DNA of 64,000 bases from a virus. Taxonomy: Duplodnaviria; Caudoviricetes. The notes beneath the pieces were generated by a model that had not been told where the DNA came from, made no database searches, and worked only from the letters and a program-made list of their open reading frames with translations. This document shows, piece after piece, positions 57,067 to 64,000 of this stretch. Within the stretch, counting starts at the first letter, position 1; each line of letters opens with the position of its first letter. The translations under genes and the position numbers were made by a program. The stretch covers positions 192,001 through 256,000 of IMG/VR virus record IMGVR_UViG_3300037067_018912; one strand, written 5' to 3'.

Positions 57067-57097
57067 TTTGTATTTATAATTCCAAGTATTATATTTG
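57067..57097 (+). promoter_or_regulatory. Bacteroidota primary-sigma promoter for tRNA array 1, with an overlapping late motif
   Basis: TTTG (57067-57070), 19 nt, TATATTTG (57090-57097); GTATTTATA at 57070-57078. Confidence 0.75.
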
Positions 57098-57119
57098 CAA
57101 CAAATTATTTGATATTGTC

Positions 57120-57188
57120 ATGAGAAATTTAGTTCATATCCAGCCCCAACATCAACCACCGCAAGTGGAACGGGGTTACTATGTCTAA
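57120..57188 (+). CDS. Attenuator leader peptide 1 (His/Gln/Pro-rich): MRNLVHIQPQHQPPQVERGYYV
   Basis: 9 of codons 6-15 are His/Gln/Pro; the 3' end carries the antiterminator strand GAACGGGGTT. Confidence 0.85.
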   Translation: MRNLVHIQPQHQPPQVERGYYV

Positions 57189-57220
57189 ATTTTCGTAAAA
57201 AAATTTTTAGTTAAACTAAG

Positions 57221-57251
57221 GAAACCCCGTTCGCAAGAGCGGGGTTTTTTT
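57221..57251 (+). terminator. Attenuator terminator 1
   Basis: AACCCCGTTC-GCAA-GAGCGGGGTT plus T run, ending just before the first tRNA (57256). Confidence 0.9.
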
Positions 57252-57255
57252 GTTT

Positions 57256-57331
57256 CAGGGAGTGGGAAAGTCGGTAATCCGCTTGCTTCGGGAGCAAGAG
57301 ACCGCCAGTTCGAATCTGGCCTTCCTGACCA
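57256..57331 (+). tRNA. tRNA-Pro(CGG)
   Basis: Cloverleaf; loop TT-CGG-GA; encoded CCA. Confidence 0.9.
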
Positions 57332-57334
57332 TAT

Positions 57335-57408
57335 GGTGATTGTAGTTCAATTGGTAGAACGTCAGATTGTGGTTCTGATAGTTGTGGGTTCGAGTCCCAT
57401 CTTTCACC
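57335..57408 (+). tRNA. tRNA-His(GTG)
   Basis: G-1, C73, loop TT-GTG-GT; two T-T mismatches in the acceptor stem. Confidence 0.85.
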
Positions 57409-57412
57409 CAAA

Positions 57413-57520
57413 TATCACGTAAAGACGTGATAAATGAAAATATCGCCTAAAAAGGCGATAAATATAATTTATCGGCTAAAAAGGCTATAAATATAATTTA
57501 TCGGCTAAAATACCGATATT
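57413..57520 (+). repeat. Four tandem ~29-nt hairpin units
   Basis: TATCACGT-AAAG-ACGTGATA, TATCGCCT-AAAA-AGGCGATA and two TATCGGCTAAAA variants. Confidence 0.7.
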
Positions 57521-57535
57521 TTTGTAACAGAGTTC

Positions 57536-57546
57536 AGTTCTTTGAC
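57536..57546 (+). promoter_or_regulatory. boxA-like antitermination site
   Basis: AGTTCTTTGAC, identical to 61552-61562. Confidence 0.6.
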
Positions 57547-57566
57547 GTATAATAAAATTCTTTAAT

Positions 57567-57639
57567 CGGGACGTGGCGCAGTTGGTAGCGCACTTGCATG
57601 GGGTGCAAGGGGTCGGAAGTTCGAGTCTTCTTGTCCCGA
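57567..57639 (+). tRNA. tRNA-Pro(GGG)
   Basis: Cloverleaf; CTTGC-AT-GGG-GT-GCAAG. Confidence 0.9.
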
Positions 57640-57782
57640 CAGGTTTGTGTGAATAGAGATGGTTATCTGAGTGGCATACAGTGGGTTGCAAACTGCTGTG
57701 TGTTGAAAGGATGTACTGGGTTGCCTGCATGCAGTATCAATCTGACTCCCGTGAGGGGGTAGTATCGAAAGCACAACCACAA

Positions 57783-57855
57783 CGGATAGTAGCGAAGTTG
57801 GTATCGCACCTGCTTTGGGAGCAGGGGATCGTGGGTTCGAGTCCCGCCTATCCGA
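57783..57855 (+). tRNA. tRNA-Pro(TGG)
   Basis: Cloverleaf; CCTGC-TT-TGG-GA-GCAGG. Confidence 0.92.
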
Positions 57856-57864
57856 CTTTTATTA

Positions 57865-57937
57865 CGGGTAGTGGGAAAGTTGGTAATCCGCCTGATTTGG
57901 GATCAGGAGACCGCAGATTCGAGTTCTGCTTACCCGA
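57865..57937 (+). tRNA. tRNA-Pro(TGG)
   Basis: Cloverleaf; CCTGA-TT-TGG-GA-TCAGG. Confidence 0.9.
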
Positions 57938-57939
57938 CT

Positions 57940-58015
57940 GTGCTTGAAGTAGGCGTTGGTGTCCTACGCCAGATTGTGGCTCTGGTTTTCGGGGGTTCGA
58001 TTCCCCTCAAGCACC
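57940..58015 (+). tRNA. tRNA-His(GTG), atypical D arm, no encoded G-1
   Basis: CCAGA-TT-GTG-GC-TCTGG; C73. Confidence 0.8.
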
Positions 58016-58030
58016 TAAATTATTTTGAAA

Positions 58031-58321
58031 ATGAATACGAGAATTGTCATATTCCTGCTTAAAAGGATTAATCGCATAATGACCGAGTTAATGAATTATG
58101 CTGATTTACCAAAAGAAAGGTTTGATAAGTTGATATACGATTACAATTACACATATGGTGTTTTTGACAGGGTCGTCGAGAAGCACAGGCGTAATATTGA
58201 ACACATTCCCCTGATCAGGGAGTTGTCCGATTTCGAATATCACTTATACACACAGAGAGAAATGGAATTGATAAACGATGAAACTTATGATCGTCGTCAT
58301 CGTAATATTTTTCATAGATAA
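58031..58321 (+). CDS. Hypothetical protein embedded in tRNA array 1
   Basis: ~96-aa ORF exactly filling the gap between two tRNAs. Confidence 0.5.
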   Translation: MNTRIVIFLLKRINRIMTELMNYADLPKERFDKLIYDYNYTYGVFDRVVEKHRRNIEHIPLIRELSDFEYHLYTQREMELINDETYDRRHRNIFHR

Positions 58322-58323
58322 AT

Positions 58324-58396
58324 TGTCCCGTGGTGTAATTGGCAACACGTCTGACTCTGGATCAGTAGAGTGCAGGTTCGATTCCTGCCGGGACAG
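58324..58396 (+). tRNA. tRNA-Gln(CTG)
   Basis: T1-A72; TCTGA-CT-CTG-GA-TCAGT. Confidence 0.9.
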
Positions 58397-58496
58397 CGAA
58401 GTTCGGTATGAAATAGAAGGTTTTCAGAGATTTGTTCATATCGAGGTTTAGTAATTCCAAGGTCGCCAAAAGAATTAGACCAAAAAATCTCGCCAT

Positions 58497-58582
58497 TGTC
58501 CTCTGGTGGAATTGGATAAACACGTCAGTCTTTGGAACTGATGCCCACATTGGGTTTGCAGGTTCAAATCCTGCGGGGACAG
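58497..58582 (+). tRNA. tRNA-Gln(TTG) with long variable arm
   Basis: TCAGT-CT-TTG-GA-ACTGA; variable arm TGCCCACATTGGGTTT; T1-A72, G73. Confidence 0.8.
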
Positions 58583-58647
58583 CAAAATGCATAAAATTAA
58601 ATATACTTGCATAAAATCATGTATATTTTAATACGCTTGCATAAAAT

Positions 58648-58719
58648 TGCCTTATAGTGTAATGGCCAGCACACAACACTTTGGATGTTGGAGTTCAAGT
58701 TCGAATCTTGGTAAGGCAA
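58648..58719 (+). tRNA. tRNA-Gln(TTG)
   Basis: CAACA-CT-TTG-GA-TGTTG. Confidence 0.88.
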
Positions 58720-59676
58720 CTACCTCCTCCCACCGGAACTGTGACTTGATCCGCCGCTACTTGAACTGCGTGATCCACCACCACTGTAACTCCCGGAACT
58801 CCTGTTTGAAGAACCCGAATATGAAGGACTTGAACTCCTGTATGTCGATCCTGAATTCGATGGTCGTGAATAACTTGAACTGCTTGAACCTCGATAAGAT
58901 GAACCGGAATTCGATGATGGTCGTGAATAACTTGAACTTCTCGTAGTTGCCGGACGTGAATACGATGGCCTTGACTGAGTTCCTGTTGATGACGGTCTTG
59001 AATATATCGGTCTGTCTGTATTTGCCGGACGATTGTAAGTACGTGTTTGAGTACTTGTCGATGGTCGAGTGTAAGTATTACGAGATTGTGTCGTCGGCTT
59101 CACATATGTGTTACGAGTTTGTGTGGCAGTTCTGTTCGATTCGATAGTCCTTCTTGGTCCATAATACTCTGTGCGCCTGTTTGGAGAATGATTCGGATAC
59201 TGATAATAAGTGTGATGTGGCTGCCAATACCAATAATTGTGATTGTACCACGAATAACTGTAGAACGGCCTGTTATACCAACGGTAATGGGGCATGTACC
59301 AATCAAAACTATACCAAGAACCATACGGATAATACCAATCGTAATAGAATGGATCATACCAACCATAATAAGGTGAATGCCAATAAAAATCAAAATAGAA
59401 TGTTGGCCTCATCCTGACATCATAATCATCTTCCTCTTCATAATAGTTATTAACCACGGTAATGTTTTGGACAACCGTGTCCTTTTCCTGTTTTTGCTCA
59501 CCGGGGATGTAATAGACATCATCGTATTCTTCAACCTGTGTGGTTTGATATTTTTTTGCAGAGTCATTCTCCGCTTTTTCCTTGGCTTCACGATACTTCT
59601 CATAATCGGATTTCTCCTGTGCAAGGATTGGTATGGAAAATAGGAGTGCTATTAGTAATAACGCCAGTTTTTTCAT
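58720..59676 (-). CDS. Secreted Bacteroidota-like protein (signal peptide, Tyr/Trp-rich core, Ser/Arg/Gly tail)
   Basis: MKKLALLLIALLFSIPILA-Q signal peptide; YDDVYY motif; SSGGGRR end. Confidence 0.75.
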   Translation of the reverse strand: MKKLALLLIALLFSIPILAQEKSDYEKYREAKEKAENDSAKKYQTTQVEEYDDVYYIPGEQKQEKDTVVQNITVVNNYYEEEDDYDVRMRPTFYFDFYWHSPYYGWYDPFYYDWYYPYGSWYSFDWYMPHYRWYNRPFYSYSWYNHNYWYWQPHHTYYQYPNHSPNRRTEYYGPRRTIESNRTATQTRNTYVKPTTQSRNTYTRPSTSTQTRTYNRPANTDRPIYSRPSSTGTQSRPSYSRPATTRSSSYSRPSSNSGSSYRGSSSSSYSRPSNSGSTYRSSSPSYSGSSNRSSGSYSGGGSRSSSSGGSSHSSGGRR

Positions 59677-59700
59677 AGTTTTGGGGTTTTAATATGTAAT

Positions 59701-59716
59701 TGCAAGTTATGTGCCA
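59701..59716 (-). promoter_or_regulatory. Sigma-54 (-24/-12) promoter
   Basis: The minus strand reads TGGCAC-ATAAC-TTGCA, about 25 nt upstream of the ATG at 59676. Confidence 0.7.
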
Positions 59717-59760
59717 ACATTTTACTTAAATAAATAGTATTTATAAAAAACTTTACCTCC

Positions 59761-60477
59761 ATGAAAAAACAAATCACCAAGGAAAGGATATTTGAAGTCG
59801 TTGCAAGACTCGATAAAACATTCAAATCAAAAATAAACGAAGGACTACTGCCGGGAGAAGATTCCATGTCACAAAACCTCAATGAGGTACAGACAAGGTC
59901 GTTGTCCGAGATCGCACAAGAGATATACCAAGATTGGCGACCAGTCAGTCCGTATGCAAAACCGTACCTTGAAGCAATGTCGTCGTTAAACTCAATTAAC
60001 GACAAATACATGTTTGATAGCGGGGACATGATTGTCAGATACTTCCTTTCGAATGCATCGACTTGGCGTGGCGAAACTGCAAAACGCATTAAATCAGAAC
60101 TAAAGGCGATGTTGGGTATGAAAGAAAACGTCAACTTCAGTGATAATCCTGGTGCACCTCCGGGGGATATTCCTCCACTTCCTGCCGCAGAACCCCAACT
60201 TCCTACCACAGAACCTACTCCTCCTATTGTAAATGAAGGTTCGGGATTGGGCACTCCGGTGAACAAATGGGTTTATTTCTCGTTCAATTATCCTCCCGGC
60301 TTTATCGAAAAGGTTTGGGCAGATGATCCAAATATAGTTCAACATCTAAATGAAAAATTCGGTGCATATTACGACAAAGTCGGTGCGGTAGGTGTAATGA
60401 ACAAATTCTATGTTGAATTGGACTCTGGGAATCAAAAGAAACTTGAAGATTGGGTCTTGGCAAATTACAAGGGGTAA
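59761..60477 (+). CDS. Leader-bearing putative head polyprotein
   Basis: MKKQITKERIFEVVARLDKTF...INE; domains separated by LNE/MKE/VNE; late motif at 59737-59745. Confidence 0.7.
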   Translation: MKKQITKERIFEVVARLDKTFKSKINEGLLPGEDSMSQNLNEVQTRSLSEIAQEIYQDWRPVSPYAKPYLEAMSSLNSINDKYMFDSGDMIVRYFLSNASTWRGETAKRIKSELKAMLGMKENVNFSDNPGAPPGDIPPLPAAEPQLPTTEPTPPIVNEGSGLGTPVNKWVYFSFNYPPGFIEKVWADDPNIVQHLNEKFGAYYDKVGAVGVMNKFYVELDSGNQKKLEDWVLANYKG

Positions 60478-60491
60478 AAACAACATTAATC

Positions 60492-61268
60492 ATGAAAAAA
60501 ACAACAAGACGGAGACTTTTCGAAGTGGTACAAAGGCTCGACAAGACGTTCAAACCCACATCAAGGTTTAAATTAAATGAAACCGGGGAATGGGCGAACG
60601 ATGAAGACGATCTTGCATGGATTGAAATGTTAAAAAGTGAGGTTCAAAAAATCGAATCCGCAACCAATGGCAAATTGGAACTTATTGATGTCAGAGGATT
60701 CGATAAATACCAAGGACCATACGCCCAAGTTAAGATTAACGGTAGGAATTACAGGATTTGGACAGCAGGTGAAGGGGATTATCCTCTTCTTTGGATTGAT
60801 AATTATCCTGTTGACAATACTTCGGCGGAAGGAATGAACCCCGGATATGCGGGAACGCCGGAAATGATTATAGAACTCCTTAACTCACAAACTCCGGTGA
60901 CCGAGAATCTCTCAAGCAATCGCTTGAATGTTAACGATATATTGGACAATTACCTTGAAGCCGCTTTTTGGACAGAAGAACAACAAAATCCTGAACTGCA
61001 AAATAAGATGGTTAGCGATATTGATTCGGCTTCGCTCCAAAAAACGAAAAATGATATTATGCAGTTTCTTCGGACGGCATTGCAACAAGCCGGAGAGGAA
61101 TTAAAAACTTATGATTCCAAAAGTATCGGCCACAATCTTTGGCTGTCAAGAAATGGACACGGGGCGGGTTTTTTCGATGACAACAACGATAAATTGCAGG
61201 ACATTGCCAGAAACATGAAATCCAGTGACTTATACATCGGCGACGATGGAAAAGTCTATCTCACATAA
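60492..61268 (+). CDS. Leader-bearing putative head polyprotein
   Basis: MKKTTRRRLFEVVQRLDKTF...KLNE; C-terminal GHNLWLSRNGHGAGFFD domain. Confidence 0.7.
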   Translation: MKKTTRRRLFEVVQRLDKTFKPTSRFKLNETGEWANDEDDLAWIEMLKSEVQKIESATNGKLELIDVRGFDKYQGPYAQVKINGRNYRIWTAGEGDYPLLWIDNYPVDNTSAEGMNPGYAGTPEMIIELLNSQTPVTENLSSNRLNVNDILDNYLEAAFWTEEQQNPELQNKMVSDIDSASLQKTKNDIMQFLRTALQQAGEELKTYDSKSIGHNLWLSRNGHGAGFFDDNNDKLQDIARNMKSSDLYIGDDGKVYLT

Positions 61269-61295
61269 AAATTTTTTAAAAAATATTCAAAATAA

Positions 61296-61334
61296 TTTGT
61301 TTGTATTGTAACATTTTTTACCTTTGCCTCGTAT
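61296..61334 (+). promoter_or_regulatory. Promoter(s) of tRNA array 2
   Basis: TTTG (61296-61299), 19 nt, TACCTTTG (61319-61326); overlapping TGTAAC-N16-TCGTAT. Confidence 0.7.
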
Positions 61335-61372
61335 TTAGACTTGAACGATTATAAACAACAAGAATTTTTAAA

Positions 61373-61465
61373 ATGAAAAAGATGCTCGACATATTAGTAG
61401 TCCTATCAGTGGCCGTCCTGTTGTGGGATGATGCTGCAGAGGAAAAACTACATGAAGTCGGGTAA
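61373..61465 (+). CDS. Attenuator leader peptide 2: MKKMLDILVVLSVAVLLWDDAAEEKLHEVG
   Basis: 18 of codons 5-24 are L/V/A/D/E/W; the 3' end carries the antiterminator strand TGAAGTCGGGT. Confidence 0.85.
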   Translation: MKKMLDILVVLSVAVLLWDDAAEEKLHEVG

Positions 61466-61500
61466 TATTGGATACTTATTACATCTCCTTTCCTAACACG

Positions 61501-61535
61501 AAAAGACCCGGCTTCAAAAAAGACCGGGTTTTTTT
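61501..61535 (+). terminator. Attenuator terminator 2
   Basis: GACCCGG (61505-61511) pairs with CCGGGTT (61524-61530), followed by a T run. Confidence 0.88.
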
Positions 61536-61551
61536 GTTTTCGGGGAGATGA

Positions 61552-61564
61552 AGTTCTTTGACAT
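61552..61564 (+). promoter_or_regulatory. boxA-like antitermination site
   Basis: AGTTCTTTGACAT between the attenuator and the first tRNA. Confidence 0.65.
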
Positions 61565-61574
61565 GCTGGAATTT

Positions 61575-61649
61575 GGTGCGTTAGTTCAGATTGGTTAGAA
61601 TATCGGCCTGTCACGCCGAGGGTCATGGGTTCAAGTCCCATACGCACCG
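61575..61649 (+). tRNA. tRNA-Asp(GTC)
   Basis: TCGGC-CT-GTC-AC-GCCGA; G73. Confidence 0.93.
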
Positions 61650-61713
61650 CAAAACGCTTATCGGAAGGTAGGCGAAGCAAGGTCGTTTGAATACGTAATA
61701 GAACGATCTTGAA

Positions 61714-61787
61714 AGTCCTGTAGTTTATACGGGTGTGAATGCCCCTGCGCACGGGGGTGGTTGCTGGTTCAAATCCAGTCAGGACTG
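61714..61787 (+). tRNA. tRNA-like RNA with non-canonical anticodon arm
   Basis: Perfect acceptor AGTCCTG/CAGGACT and normal T arm; anticodon arm CCCCTGCGCACGGGGG lacks a standard 7-nt U33 loop. Confidence 0.55.
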
Positions 61788-61792
61788 CAAAT

Positions 61793-61868
61793 CGTTTCGT
61801 CGGCCTCTTCGGAGAGGAACTGGCCTGTCACGTCAGTAAAATAGAGGGTTCGAATCCCTCCGGGACGG
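61793..61868 (+). tRNA. tRNA-Asp(GTC), atypical D arm
   Basis: CTGGC-CT-GTC-AC-GTCAG; D arm CCTCT-TCGG-AGAGG. Confidence 0.75.
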
Positions 61869-61870
61869 CA

Positions 61871-61992
61871 AAATATCAGAACAATGAAAGTATTGGTTCG
61901 AGTCCAAGGTGGGATAATTCAGATGGCGCAGTAATGCTAAAAGTATTCCTGAACATCCTACCGCAAGGTAAAACGGATGCCTTCTGATATTT
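61871..61992 (+). ncRNA. Candidate structured RNA
   Basis: Closed by an 11-bp AAATATCAGAA/TTCTGATATTT stem; contains a T-arm-like TTGG-TTCGAGT-CCAA and a GCAA-capped hairpin. Confidence 0.5.
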
Positions 61993-61997
61993 TATAT

Positions 61998-62073
61998 GCT
62001 GCGTTCGGCAAGTCCGGTTCAAGCCACCAGACCTTCAATCTGGTCATCATGGGTTCAAATCCCATACGCAGTA
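61998..62073 (+). tRNA. tRNA-Glu(TTC) with C33
   Basis: CCAGA-CC-TTC-AA-TCTGG. Confidence 0.78.
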
Positions 62074-62099
62074 CAATCCTCGAAAATCAGTGGTTATCA

Positions 62100-62268
62100 T
62101 TTGTCCGCTGAAGACAAACAGTAAAGCAAAAAAATCGGGGCATACCCCCGCATCAGAGAGTCACTGAAACTTTACAACCCTTCCAAGAGGGTGTCGTTTG
62201 TTGAAAGATGCATAGTTTCCTCATAATTAAGGAGGTATTGCATTCCAACTTGGTAGTGGACGGACAAT
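62100..62268 (+). ncRNA. Candidate multibranch RNA
   Basis: Stems TTGTCCG/CGGACAA (closing), GACAAAC/GTTTGTT and ATGCA/TGCAT. Confidence 0.4.
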
Positions 62269-62271
62269 CAT

Positions 62272-62343
62272 GCTCGGTTCTTCTAACGGTCAGGAATTCG
62301 GGTTTTCATCCCGGCAATGGGGGTTCGATTCCCCCACCGAGTA
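62272..62343 (+). tRNA. tRNA-Glu(TTC)
   Basis: TCGGG-TT-TTC-AT-CCCGG. Confidence 0.88.
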
Positions 62344-62348
62344 CTAAT

Positions 62349-62412
62349 AATGTTGGTTATATCATACATTAAGTGGTAAAATTAAGGTTAATGTTGGTTA
62401 TATCATACATTA
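62349..62412 (+). repeat. Direct repeat, 2 x 23 nt
   Basis: AATGTTGGTTATATCATACATTA at 62349 and 62390. Confidence 0.85.
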
Positions 62413-62448
62413 TGGAGTGTTTTTGTTAAACATATTTTACATTATCAT

Positions 62449-62521
62449 GTTCGGTTCTTCTAACTGGCCAGGAAAATAGGTTCTCAGCCTAAGAATAAGG
62501 GTTCGACCCCCTTACCGAATA
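62449..62521 (+). tRNA. tRNA-Glu(CTC)
   Basis: TAGG-TT-CTC-AG-CCTA. Confidence 0.85.
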
Positions 62522-62527
62522 CTTGAA

Positions 62528-62605
62528 GTCCTTTTAGTTCAGTTGGTTCAGAATGCCGCTTTCACAGAGCGGAGGTCGTTGGTTCGAATCCAACAAAGGA
62601 CACCA
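62528..62605 (+). tRNA. tRNA-Val(CAC)
   Basis: CCGCT-TT-CAC-AG-AGCGG; encoded CCA. Confidence 0.9.
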
Positions 62606-62695
62606 AATCAAACAAAAGCCAGTAAATGGCATTTAGTGTCTTTTGTTTGAAATTGGCAACGAACGATATTTAGTGCCAAAATTGTGATAATTTTC

Positions 62696-62769
62696 GCTCC
62701 TTTAACTCAGTCCGGGAGAGTGTCTGCCTTACATGCAGAAAGTCGGGGGTTCAAACCCCTCAAGGAGCA
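62696..62769 (+). tRNA. tRNA-Val(TAC)
   Basis: TCTGC-CT-TAC-AT-GCAGA. Confidence 0.92.
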
Positions 62770-62822
62770 CAAAACTATAAATCGGCAGCAAACGGCATTT
62801 AGTGCCGATTTATAGTTTACAA

Positions 62823-62897
62823 GTCCCTTTAGTTCAGTTGGTTCAGAACATCACCTTGACAGGGTGGGGGTCGTTGGTTCGAATCCAACAGGGGACA
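62823..62897 (+). tRNA. tRNA-Val(GAC)
   Basis: TCACC-TT-GAC-AG-GGTGG. Confidence 0.9.
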
Positions 62898-62995
62898 CAT
62901 GGGTTTGCAGACTTGGACAACAAATATGTCGGCAATTGCCAATATATCTTCCAACAAGATATAATACGCTGATATTGGTCTGTGAACCTATACCT

Positions 62996-63079
62996 CTCAT
63001 TGTGGTGGAATTGGTAGACACGTGCGTTCGAGGGGCGCATGCACGAAAGTGTTTGCGGGTTCAACTCCCGCCGATGAGA
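62996..63079 (+). tRNA. tRNA-Leu(GAG) with C33
   Basis: TGCGT-TC-GAG-GG-GCGCA; long variable arm; A73. Confidence 0.8.
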
Positions 63080-63087
63080 CAATAAAT

Positions 63088-63161
63088 GCGGACGTAGCCG
63101 AATTGGCATAGGCGTCAGTCTTAGGAACTGATTTTTGTGGGTTCAAGTCCCACCGTCCGTA
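63088..63161 (+). tRNA. tRNA-Leu(TAG), short variable loop
   Basis: TCAGT-CT-TAG-GA-ACTGA; variable loop TTTTT; 74 nt. Confidence 0.85.
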
Positions 63162-63303
63162 CAAAAGGTGCATGACAGCAATAAGCAGTTTGGACTGCAT
63201 CACCTGTGCCGAGTTATCCTTAAATGTGAAGGAGTAATACCTTCTGAGTCTTTACATGACACTGCTTTATGTGTATTGGTTGGATAACTAAAAAGGCACA
63301 CAT

Positions 63304-63377
63304 GCAGATGTAGCCGAACTGGTATAGGCAATCGTTTCAGGGGCGATAATCTGCGGGTTCGACTCCCGCCATCTGTA
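63304..63377 (+). tRNA. tRNA-Leu(CAG), short variable loop
   Basis: ATCGT-TT-CAG-GG-GCGAT; variable loop AATCT; 74 nt. Confidence 0.85.
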
Positions 63378-63458
63378 CGACCTTATTTTGGGTAACGAAG
63401 CCAATAGTCCCAAACACTCAGGTAGAAAATAATGGTTTCTGCATAAGGACAACTATAT

Positions 63459-63532
63459 GGGGTCGTAGCATAACTGGCTAATGCACCTGCCTTGCAAGCA
63501 GGGGACTGAGGGTTCAAGTCCCTTCGATTCCA
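63459..63532 (+). tRNA. tRNA-Ala(TGC)
   Basis: CCTGC-CT-TGC-AA-GCAGG; G3:U70. Confidence 0.92.
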
Positions 63533-63601
63533 CGCTGTCGGGTTTTTCGCACTTTTAGATTTCCGTGAGGTCAATTGACTGAGAAAGAAAAAGTGCAATT
63601 T

Positions 63602-63676
63602 GGGTCATTAGTTTAGACGGCTAAAACACTTGGTTTGCACCCAGGAGATCACGAGTTCGAGGCTCGTATGTATCCA
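63602..63676 (+). tRNA. tRNA-Ala(TGC), bulged acceptor stem
   Basis: CTTGG-TT-TGC-AC-CCAGG; G3:U70. Confidence 0.75.
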
Positions 63677-63741
63677 CCTGACGGGACTGTTTAGGATTTT
63701 CATAGGACTCCCAATGCAGTGCGCATAGAAAATCCAATTCC

Positions 63742-63815
63742 GGGGTCGTAGTTCAAATGGATAGAGCACCTGCCTGGCAGGCAGGGGGTTGAGGGTTCAA
63801 GTCCCTTCGATTCCA
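63742..63815 (+). tRNA. tRNA-Ala(GGC)
   Basis: CCTGC-CT-GGC-AG-GCAGG. Confidence 0.92.
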
Positions 63816-63881
63816 CTGAGACAGACTGTTAGGATTTCATAGTACCTGCTGCGTGTGGGTAGAAGCGTAGAAATTCAAATT

Positions 63882-63955
63882 GGGGTATTGGTTCAGATGG
63901 CTACAACGTCTGCTCCGCAAGCAGAAGACCGGGGGTTCGAGTCCCCCATACTCCA
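63882..63955 (+). tRNA. tRNA-Ala(CGC) with C33
   Basis: TCTGC-TC-CGC-AA-GCAGA; G3:U70. Confidence 0.85.
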
Positions 63956-63960
63956 CAACA

Positions 63961-64000
63961 AATGTAGTAGCATCCATTGGTGAGGTAAGCGGTCTCCAAA
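63961..64000 (+). tRNA. Probable tRNA-Trp(CCA), truncated by window end
   Basis: ...GCGGT-CT-CCA-AA at the window edge. Confidence 0.6.

Follow-up and report, generated by a model that had tools for sequence, protein, structure and literature searches.

Codon-matched leader reading frames as putative attenuators ahead of the transfer RNA arrays of a T4-like jumbo phage

The 64,000-nucleotide (nt) window analyzed here spans positions 192001-256000 of a complete 357,275-bp phage genome with terminal repeats (IMG/VR record IMGVR_UViG_3300037067_018912); coordinates marked 'genome' refer to the whole record and all others to the window. Two arrays of transfer RNA (tRNA) genes in this window are each preceded by a short open reading frame (ORF) and an intrinsic terminator. 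We consider it very likely that these leaders work by ribosome-mediated transcription attenuation and form a feedback loop on tRNA supply; each tRNA set is probably made only once ribosomes have difficulty with the matching codons. A first-pass annotation had already read the two leaders as attenuators, and this reading has since gained two further units, conservation in relatives, covariation, a modelled switch point and codons that follow tRNA genes to new arrays. The anatomy, the codon match, the conservation, the covariation and the joint migration of codons and tRNA genes are seen directly in the sequence, while the position of the switch comes from modelling.

Four leader units divide the genetic code

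For both arrays in the window a promoter, an ORF of 22-30 codons, a terminator and then tRNAs had been described, and both units were found in this arrangement (Table 1). The terminators are predicted at -23.8 kcal/mol (z -5.1) in unit 1 and at -21.2 kcal/mol (z -3.6) in unit 2. Two more units lie outside the window: unit 3 has a Tyr/Lys-rich leader at genome 264620-264712 followed by Lys and Tyr tRNAs, and unit 4 has a 41-codon leader at genome 272437-272562 followed by Thr, Cys, Asn, Ile, Ser, Phe, Gly and Arg tRNAs. All units of the genome (4/4) thus carry a short ORF between promoter and intrinsic terminator ahead of the tRNAs. The four arrays partition the 19 non-Met amino acids without overlap, and a Met tRNA stands at the end of array 2. 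Exactly four plus-strand copies of TAnnTTTGC are found in the 40-kb tRNA region, one ahead of each leader. A second motif, GTATTTA, occurs upstream of 69/72 leaders, upstream of 28/161 long ORFs and inside 1/161 genes; its copies at 57072 and 61332 are in tandem with the host-type promoter. The genome codes for three sigma-70-type proteins, and GTATTTA is a candidate promoter element for one of them.

Leaders are built from the codons that their arrays decode

The claim that each leader consists of codons of its own array was borne out for the two leaders in the window: 21/29 codons of leader 2 belong to the amino acids of its array (background 0.33, p=2e-5), as do 9/21 codons (Pro/His/Gln) of leader 1 against a background of 0.08. 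Leader 4 reaches 29/40 own-class codons (p=2e-4). Enrichment is modest in leader 3 (8/29, p=0.02), because its Lys/Tyr block is short; the excess of own-class codons is significant in all four leaders. The control block of leader 1 includes codons for each of the 6 anticodon types in array 1 and that of leader 2 covers 14/15 anticodon types of array 2, where Ala(CGC) finds no GCG codon. Across the genome, 41/43 distinct anticodons have a cognate codon in their leader, compared with the 33.6 expected if synonymous codons are drawn at random according to genome usage (p=4e-5); the codons missing from their own leaders are GCG and CGG.

The units are conserved, as a scan of related phages, proposed in the first-pass annotation, demonstrated. 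Around 30 related contigs were gathered by neighbour-gene searches and genome extraction, and each leader was assigned to a class by the first tRNA of its array. The relatives contain about 70 distinct units with a short ORF between promoter and intrinsic terminator. Every class amino acid was found in 69/69 non-redundant leaders (own genome and relatives), with mean own-class fractions of 0.39, 0.68, 0.34 and 0.81 for classes 1-4 over backgrounds of 0.08, 0.33, 0.12 and 0.44. A tRNA-free DNA pattern gave 67 distinct matches; 61 have intact ORFs, in every one of which D, E, V, L, A and W occur (the pattern itself already dictates W, V and one of A/D), 62 have terminators, and Asp is the first tRNA in 53 of the 59 evaluable cases. 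In complete relatives with only 1-3 tRNAs the terminator pattern is absent.

Codons follow tRNA genes in rearranged arrays

Rearranged arrays serve as natural experiments. In the standard layout, CTN codons and TGG are present in 17/17 class 2 leaders; in class 4, CTN is found in the core of 2/19 leaders and TGG in 0/19. In one relative (G047) the Leu-TAG, Leu-AAG and Trp tRNAs are located in array 4; there, leader 2 has only TTA/TTG for Leu and no TGG, and leader 4 contains CTA, CTC and TGG. In two others (G045 and G043) only the Leu-CUN tRNAs have moved: the receiving leader has CTN, and the control block of leader 2 has kept TGG and TTR. G045 furthermore has array 4 split into a Thr/Arg/Ile block and a Phe/Ile/Ser/Gly/Asn/Leu/Cys block, each with a matching leader. 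Finally, two genomes (G017 and G025) possess a single all-amino-acid array, and the leader of 41-42 codons in front of it contains all 20 residues.

As a separate observation, unit 1 lies in the opposite orientation to unit 2 in G043, G045 and G047, with leader and array moving together (contigs L276, L278 and L256).

Pairing, covariation and modelled switching of the leader RNA

The end of each leader ORF had been reported as complementary to the 5′ arm of the terminator, and the resulting helices of 10 and 11 base pairs (bp) are better than those of shuffled leaders: pairing beats codon-order shuffles (p=0.0005 for unit 1, p=0.0075 for unit 2) as well as synonymous shuffles (p=0.039 and p=0.02, respectively). 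Among the relatives a GGG/CCC core is almost invariant and is extended in a class-specific manner in each class. Leaders pair better with their own terminator (-15.0) than with same-class terminators of other genomes (-13.8, p=2.6e-5), significantly so within classes 2-4. Covariation in the antiterminator helix, which the first-pass annotation had advised looking for, was detected at the helix positions left free by the pattern (58 versus 35.6 pairs, p<1e-4). Unit 1 departs from most relatives in its antiterminator, 5′ arm and 3′ arm; the changes at these three sites compensate one another, and the peptide E-W-G becomes E-R-G as a result. Several relatives have the antiterminator in another reading frame with the helix kept, and frameshifts past the control block are tolerated; selection therefore acts on the RNA. 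The mean distance between antiterminator and 5′ arm is 44-61 nt depending on class.

Stall positions were modelled in silico by folding the nascent RNA under a ribosome mask. The antiterminator is predicted to be present for stalls up to P14, E24-L26, K15-Q17 and G32 in units 1-4, respectively, and to be lost one to three codons beyond the end of the control block. Folding also predicts a 1:2 protector helix in units 1 and 3 of the genome; the consensus folds of classes 1-3 lack it.

Proposed mechanism and its alternatives

We infer leader translation, its coupling to transcription, kinetic folding and regulated read-through as follows. RNA polymerase would start at the promoter and a ribosome would translate the leader. 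If all control codons are read promptly, the ribosome would cover the antiterminator as the 5′ arm emerges ∼45-60 nt downstream, the terminator would fold and the array would stay off. If a usable charged tRNA is scarce, the ribosome would wait at a control codon, the antiterminator would capture the 5′ arm first, and the polymerase would read through into the block with the lacking tRNA. The array holding the scarce tRNA would thus be transcribed, therefore closing a negative-feedback loop. Since a leader holds about one codon per anticodon, it would act as an OR gate over its array, and the four units would divide the code among such sensors.

We regard it as fairly likely that the trigger is functional loss of tRNA during infection, through host anticodon nucleases or general tRNA decay, rather than amino-acid starvation. 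Sensing of tRNA supply is favoured over sensing of amino acids because the output is tRNA and because Leu CUN and UUR are tracked separately. The first-pass annotation had proposed on-demand rescue from either starvation or nucleases; its starvation part is the weaker one, as extra tRNA is no cure for a lack of amino acids. Evenly poised, in our judgment, is the wider proposal of a phage tRNA surveillance in which the code is split among codon-box-resolved leader sensors that induce replacement tRNAs after loss by nucleases or decay. The same design appears, with different partitions, in Bacteroidota-type jumbo phages and in Caulobacter phages; if the proposal is true, the codons of a leader would therefore foretell the tRNA losses that its phage can detect and repair. 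The dedicated multi-copy Lys/Tyr array is suggestive of a link to anticodon-nuclease defence, and a gene for an RtcB RNA ligase (genome 348880-349941, away from the arrays) is circumstantial for a counter-defence role.

Several results weigh against this account or narrow it. The relatives share ancestry, so a count such as 69/69 measures conservation and does not represent independent trials. The genomes with moved Leu tRNAs (G043, G045 and G047) form one moderately supported clade (90/74), and for this reason we count only about four events (Leu move, Trp move, split and single array). Own and swapped terminators do not differ significantly in class 1 alone (p=0.58). At equilibrium, full-length leader RNA folds into the terminator for nearly all ribosome positions, and the switch would therefore have to be kinetic and co-transcriptional. 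In class 3 some 8 codons separate the end of the antiterminator from the stop codon, and the model lets the antiterminator partially re-form when the ribosome is at the stop codon. The codon match had also been said to extend to synonymous codons, which holds in the genome itself and at the level of codon boxes but not per isoacceptor: across genomes the presence of an isoacceptor gene is not significantly tied to the exact leader codon (Fisher p=0.14). In addition, one relative (G029) keeps a full leader 2 despite few detected array-2 tRNAs. Leaders thus do not exactly mirror the gene list of each array; since isoacceptor tracking is not significant and leaders are complete where few tRNAs were detected, they appear to survey the codon boxes of the whole decoding pool.

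The same attenuator could instead sense amino-acid starvation by way of uncharged tRNA, like the trp, his and ilv leaders, with tRNA cleavage being incidental. Uncharged tRNA triggers any leader attenuator (PMC1183508), the response of the whiB7 upstream ORF (uORF) follows its amino-acid content (10.1101/2023.06.02.543512), and the match is perfect for amino acids (69/69) and weak for single isoacceptors. However, a tRNA output would presumably not relieve a shortage of amino acids, a leucine sensor would not need to follow CUN and UUR separately, and synonymous codons are more diverse than chance, which leaves starvation sensing an unlikely explanation. We consider it improbable that the units are a general translation-stress or timing switch, comparable to the whiB7/wblC and toiL uORFs, that opens as translation slows late in infection, with codon identity being secondary. 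Such a switch would fit leaders with all 20 amino acids acting as global sensors and the second, phage-type promoter motif ahead of 69/72 leaders; moreover, because classes 1-3 lack a conserved protector, leaders 2 and 4 would allow read-through by default if they were not translated. Nevertheless, a switch that senses translation as a whole has no need of four separate alphabets, or of codons that accompany tRNA genes to new arrays. Each leader class shows conserved peptide motifs and short ORFs are frequent by chance, as would be expected if the ORFs encoded functional small peptides or were chance ORFs before ordinary leaky terminators. Against this, the RNA helix is kept where frameshifts beyond the control block are tolerated, and the compensatory change in unit 1 alters the peptide. 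Ala, Val and Glu stand at differing positions in the two 20-amino-acid leaders (G017 versus G025) with coverage intact, and the chance that a 41-residue window contains all 20 amino acids is 0.3-0.6% each. We therefore judge this explanation very improbable.

We thus return to attenuation by tRNA supply and its bearing on a long-standing question, namely why phages carry tRNAs; the regulation of such genes has received little attention. An attenuator with matching codons implies that the tRNAs respond to a shortage the phage can sense, so that supply or defence rescue is a better-favoured role for them than static codon compensation. Such an attenuator would also extend attenuation to tRNA genes and to viruses, and the leaders could serve as compact reporters of damage to the tRNA pool.

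Relation to known regulatory systems

Examples of leader-peptide attenuators are those of ilvGMEDA, thr, trpL, hisL and leuL. The phage units resemble them in the control-codon ORF, the antiterminator that competes for the terminator 5′ arm, and the race between ribosome and polymerase (PMC1183508). In contrast to these operons, the phage units control tRNA genes and not biosynthetic or synthetase genes, contain about one codon per anticodon instead of runs of one amino acid, tile the code with four units and lack a conserved 1:2 protector. The pheM leader of E. coli pheST is an attenuator that reads charged-tRNA supply and controls a part of the translation machinery; it is chromosomal, responds to one amino acid and has a synthetase as output, whereas the phage output is tRNAs. 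T-box riboswitches, characterized by a Stem I specifier loop and a T-box bulge, bind tRNA directly without an ORF, and their antitermination reports tRNA status codon by codon. The phage units also report tRNA status by antitermination but do so with an ORF, and a search of Rfam found no T-box or leader family at E<=1, only tRNAs. Composition-dependent sensing has been demonstrated for the mycobacterial whiB7/wblC uORF, where the composition sets which shortages are sensed and slow translation leads to antiterminator formation, read-through and feedback (10.1101/2023.06.02.543512). There, however, the output is a transcription factor, the code is not partitioned and the leader does not match downstream anticodons.

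Phage tRNAs have been hypothesized to act against anticodon nucleases (PMC10264068). A T5-like tRNA-Tyr counters retron Eco7, and a phage tRNA-Lys counters PrrC (PMC11555353) and PARIS (PMC11464382). The tRNAs are likewise supplied by the phage here, and the targeted Lys and Tyr have their own multi-copy array; in those studies, rescue was tied to a strong promoter or to anticodon-loop changes. Searched by term, the latter two papers make no mention of a leader or attenuator. A leader attenuator on tRNA genes was not found in the literature searched, which leaves out most subscription journals. The parts of the system are classical; for tRNA genes as its target, a virus as its setting and a divided code, the searchable literature offers no description.

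Similar units in other phages

In the cultured Caulobacter phage CcrSC (MH588547), which offers a model at hand, the 39-codon ORF gp144 lies ahead of Pro/Thr/Lys/Leu/His/Ala/Ser/Trp tRNAs. Codons for the eight amino acids of this array make up 33/38 of gp144, with all eight present; a scan for a U-tract terminator downstream of it gave none. In another CcrSC leader, 14 codons in a row belong to the Val/Ile/Gln/Asn/Arg/Phe set, and this leader has a terminator of -27 and an antiterminator of -28.7. Both the partition of the code and the host phylum of CcrSC differ from those of the phage studied here. No match of leader 2 was obtained by tblastn against GenBank phages, and no such unit was found in the tRNA regions of DAC15 and Phass-1 or in the first 50 kb of Flavobacterium phage immuto_2-6A. 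Prevotella phage Lak-B1 (L077, 16516-16720) has a 37-codon ORF and a terminator ahead of a tRNA array; with 13/14 array amino acids in the ORF and a weak antiterminator (-7), this is a candidate only.

Phage identity and host

The phage is a T4-like jumbo myophage, as identified by its genes for the tail sheath, a T4-type major head protein, the portal and the terminase. No close cultured relative was found, the top capsid matches (a Microcystis phage and Flavobacterium phage immuto) being 31-33% identical. A bS21 gene is absent from the genome, and membership among the bS21 phages of PMC9723584 is thus not supported. Shine-Dalgarno motifs are missing from the genes (2.5% versus 3.1% in the control) and the regions upstream of genes are A-rich at -11 to -13. 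Because of these two features and the TAnnTTTG elements before the leaders, which we take to be the Bacteroidota-type promoter consensus, the host is probably a member of the Bacteroidota. The bin labels of GTDB matches (Anaerolinea, Paceibacterota) were not used for host assignment, since one of these matches, a contig of 362,763 bp, has the same length as an IMG/VR phage record.

Further features of the window and its relatives

The features of units 1 and 2 are collected in Table 1. The tRNA-Trp gene of array 2 starts at 63961 and crosses the window end (genome 255961-256043); beyond it the array continues with a transfer-messenger RNA (tmRNA; genome 257755-258118), Leu TAA, Leu CAA and Met, up to genome 260112. 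The tRNA-Tyr predicted with a low score at genome 249459 was taken to be a spacer hairpin and left out.

Table 1. Features of the two leader units located in the window
Feature	Position	Strand	Description
Promoter region 1	57067..57097	+	Bacteroidota-type TTTG ... TAnnTTTG with -7 element TATATTTG at 57090-57097; overlapped by GTATTTA motif (candidate phage-sigma element)
Leader ORF 1	57120..57188	+	22 codons; control block His/Gln/Pro 57135-57164
Possible segment 1 (protector)	57142..57147	+	predicted pairing with antiterminator when leader is untranslated
Antiterminator 1	57168..57177	+	10 Watson-Crick bp with terminator 5′ arm 57223-57232
Intrinsic terminator 1	57221..57251	+	5′ arm 57223-57232, 3′ arm from 57237, U tract
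tRNA array 1	57256..58720	+	9 tRNAs: Pro CGG, His, Pro GGG, Pro TGG x2, His, Gln CTG, Gln TTG x2
Promoter region 2	61295..61338	+	-7 element TACCTTTG at 61319-61326; GTATTTA motif directly downstream
Leader ORF 2	61373..61465	+	30 codons; control block Leu/Asp/Val/Ala/Trp/Glu 61385-61444
Antiterminator 2	61453..61463	+	11 bp, one G-U, with terminator 5′ arm
Conserved pyrimidine spacer element	61483..61494	+	like Bacteroidota 16S ribosomal RNA 3′ tail
Intrinsic terminator 2	61503..61535	+	5′ arm 61506-61515, 3′ arm from 61522, U tract
tRNA array 2	61575..64000 (window part)	+	Asp x2, Glu x3, Val x3, Leu x3, Ala x4, Trp

The ORFs adjoining the arrays have no Pfam family. A 96-amino-acid (aa) ORF inside array 1 (58031-58321) belongs to no known family; an ORF of 318 aa on the minus strand (58720-59676), also without a Pfam family, converges on the end of array 1 and has a Tyr/Trp-rich middle and a long Ser/Arg/Gly tail. 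The CTCCTTT element in the spacer of leader 2 is present in 52/67 pattern matches and in class-2 units only. The spacer of several relatives contains the exact ACCTCCTTTCT, the complement of a Shine-Dalgarno oligonucleotide used with Flavobacterium ribosomes (PMC7797042).

Between the two Asp tRNAs lies a tRNA-like gene (61714-61787) with an anticodon loop of 8 nt; its D and T arms are kept in the relatives L059 and L261 while the loop varies, and it is probably a non-decoding tRNA mimic or decoy. A second tRNA with a remodelled loop is found at genome 274636. A structured insert at 61870-61995, not called as a tRNA, combines a T-loop-like motif with a GTATTCCTGAA element that occurs again near genome 294380. 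The spacers between tRNAs (57410-57520, 62600-62820 and others) are frequently near-palindromic hairpins, some of them repeated, and are possibly processing signals.

A tRNA with an amber anticodon (CUA) follows array 4 (genome 282907-282981) and is also present in several relatives. Anticodons that are rare in bacteria occur in the relatives: many have a Leu tRNA with AAG and some have Arg GCG or Gly ACC (L001, L059, L069, L253, L262 and others). In relatives with Leu AAG the leaders mainly use CTC, not CTT. One relative (L014, 5633-6544) carries a gene for a CorA Mg2+ transporter within tRNA array 4.

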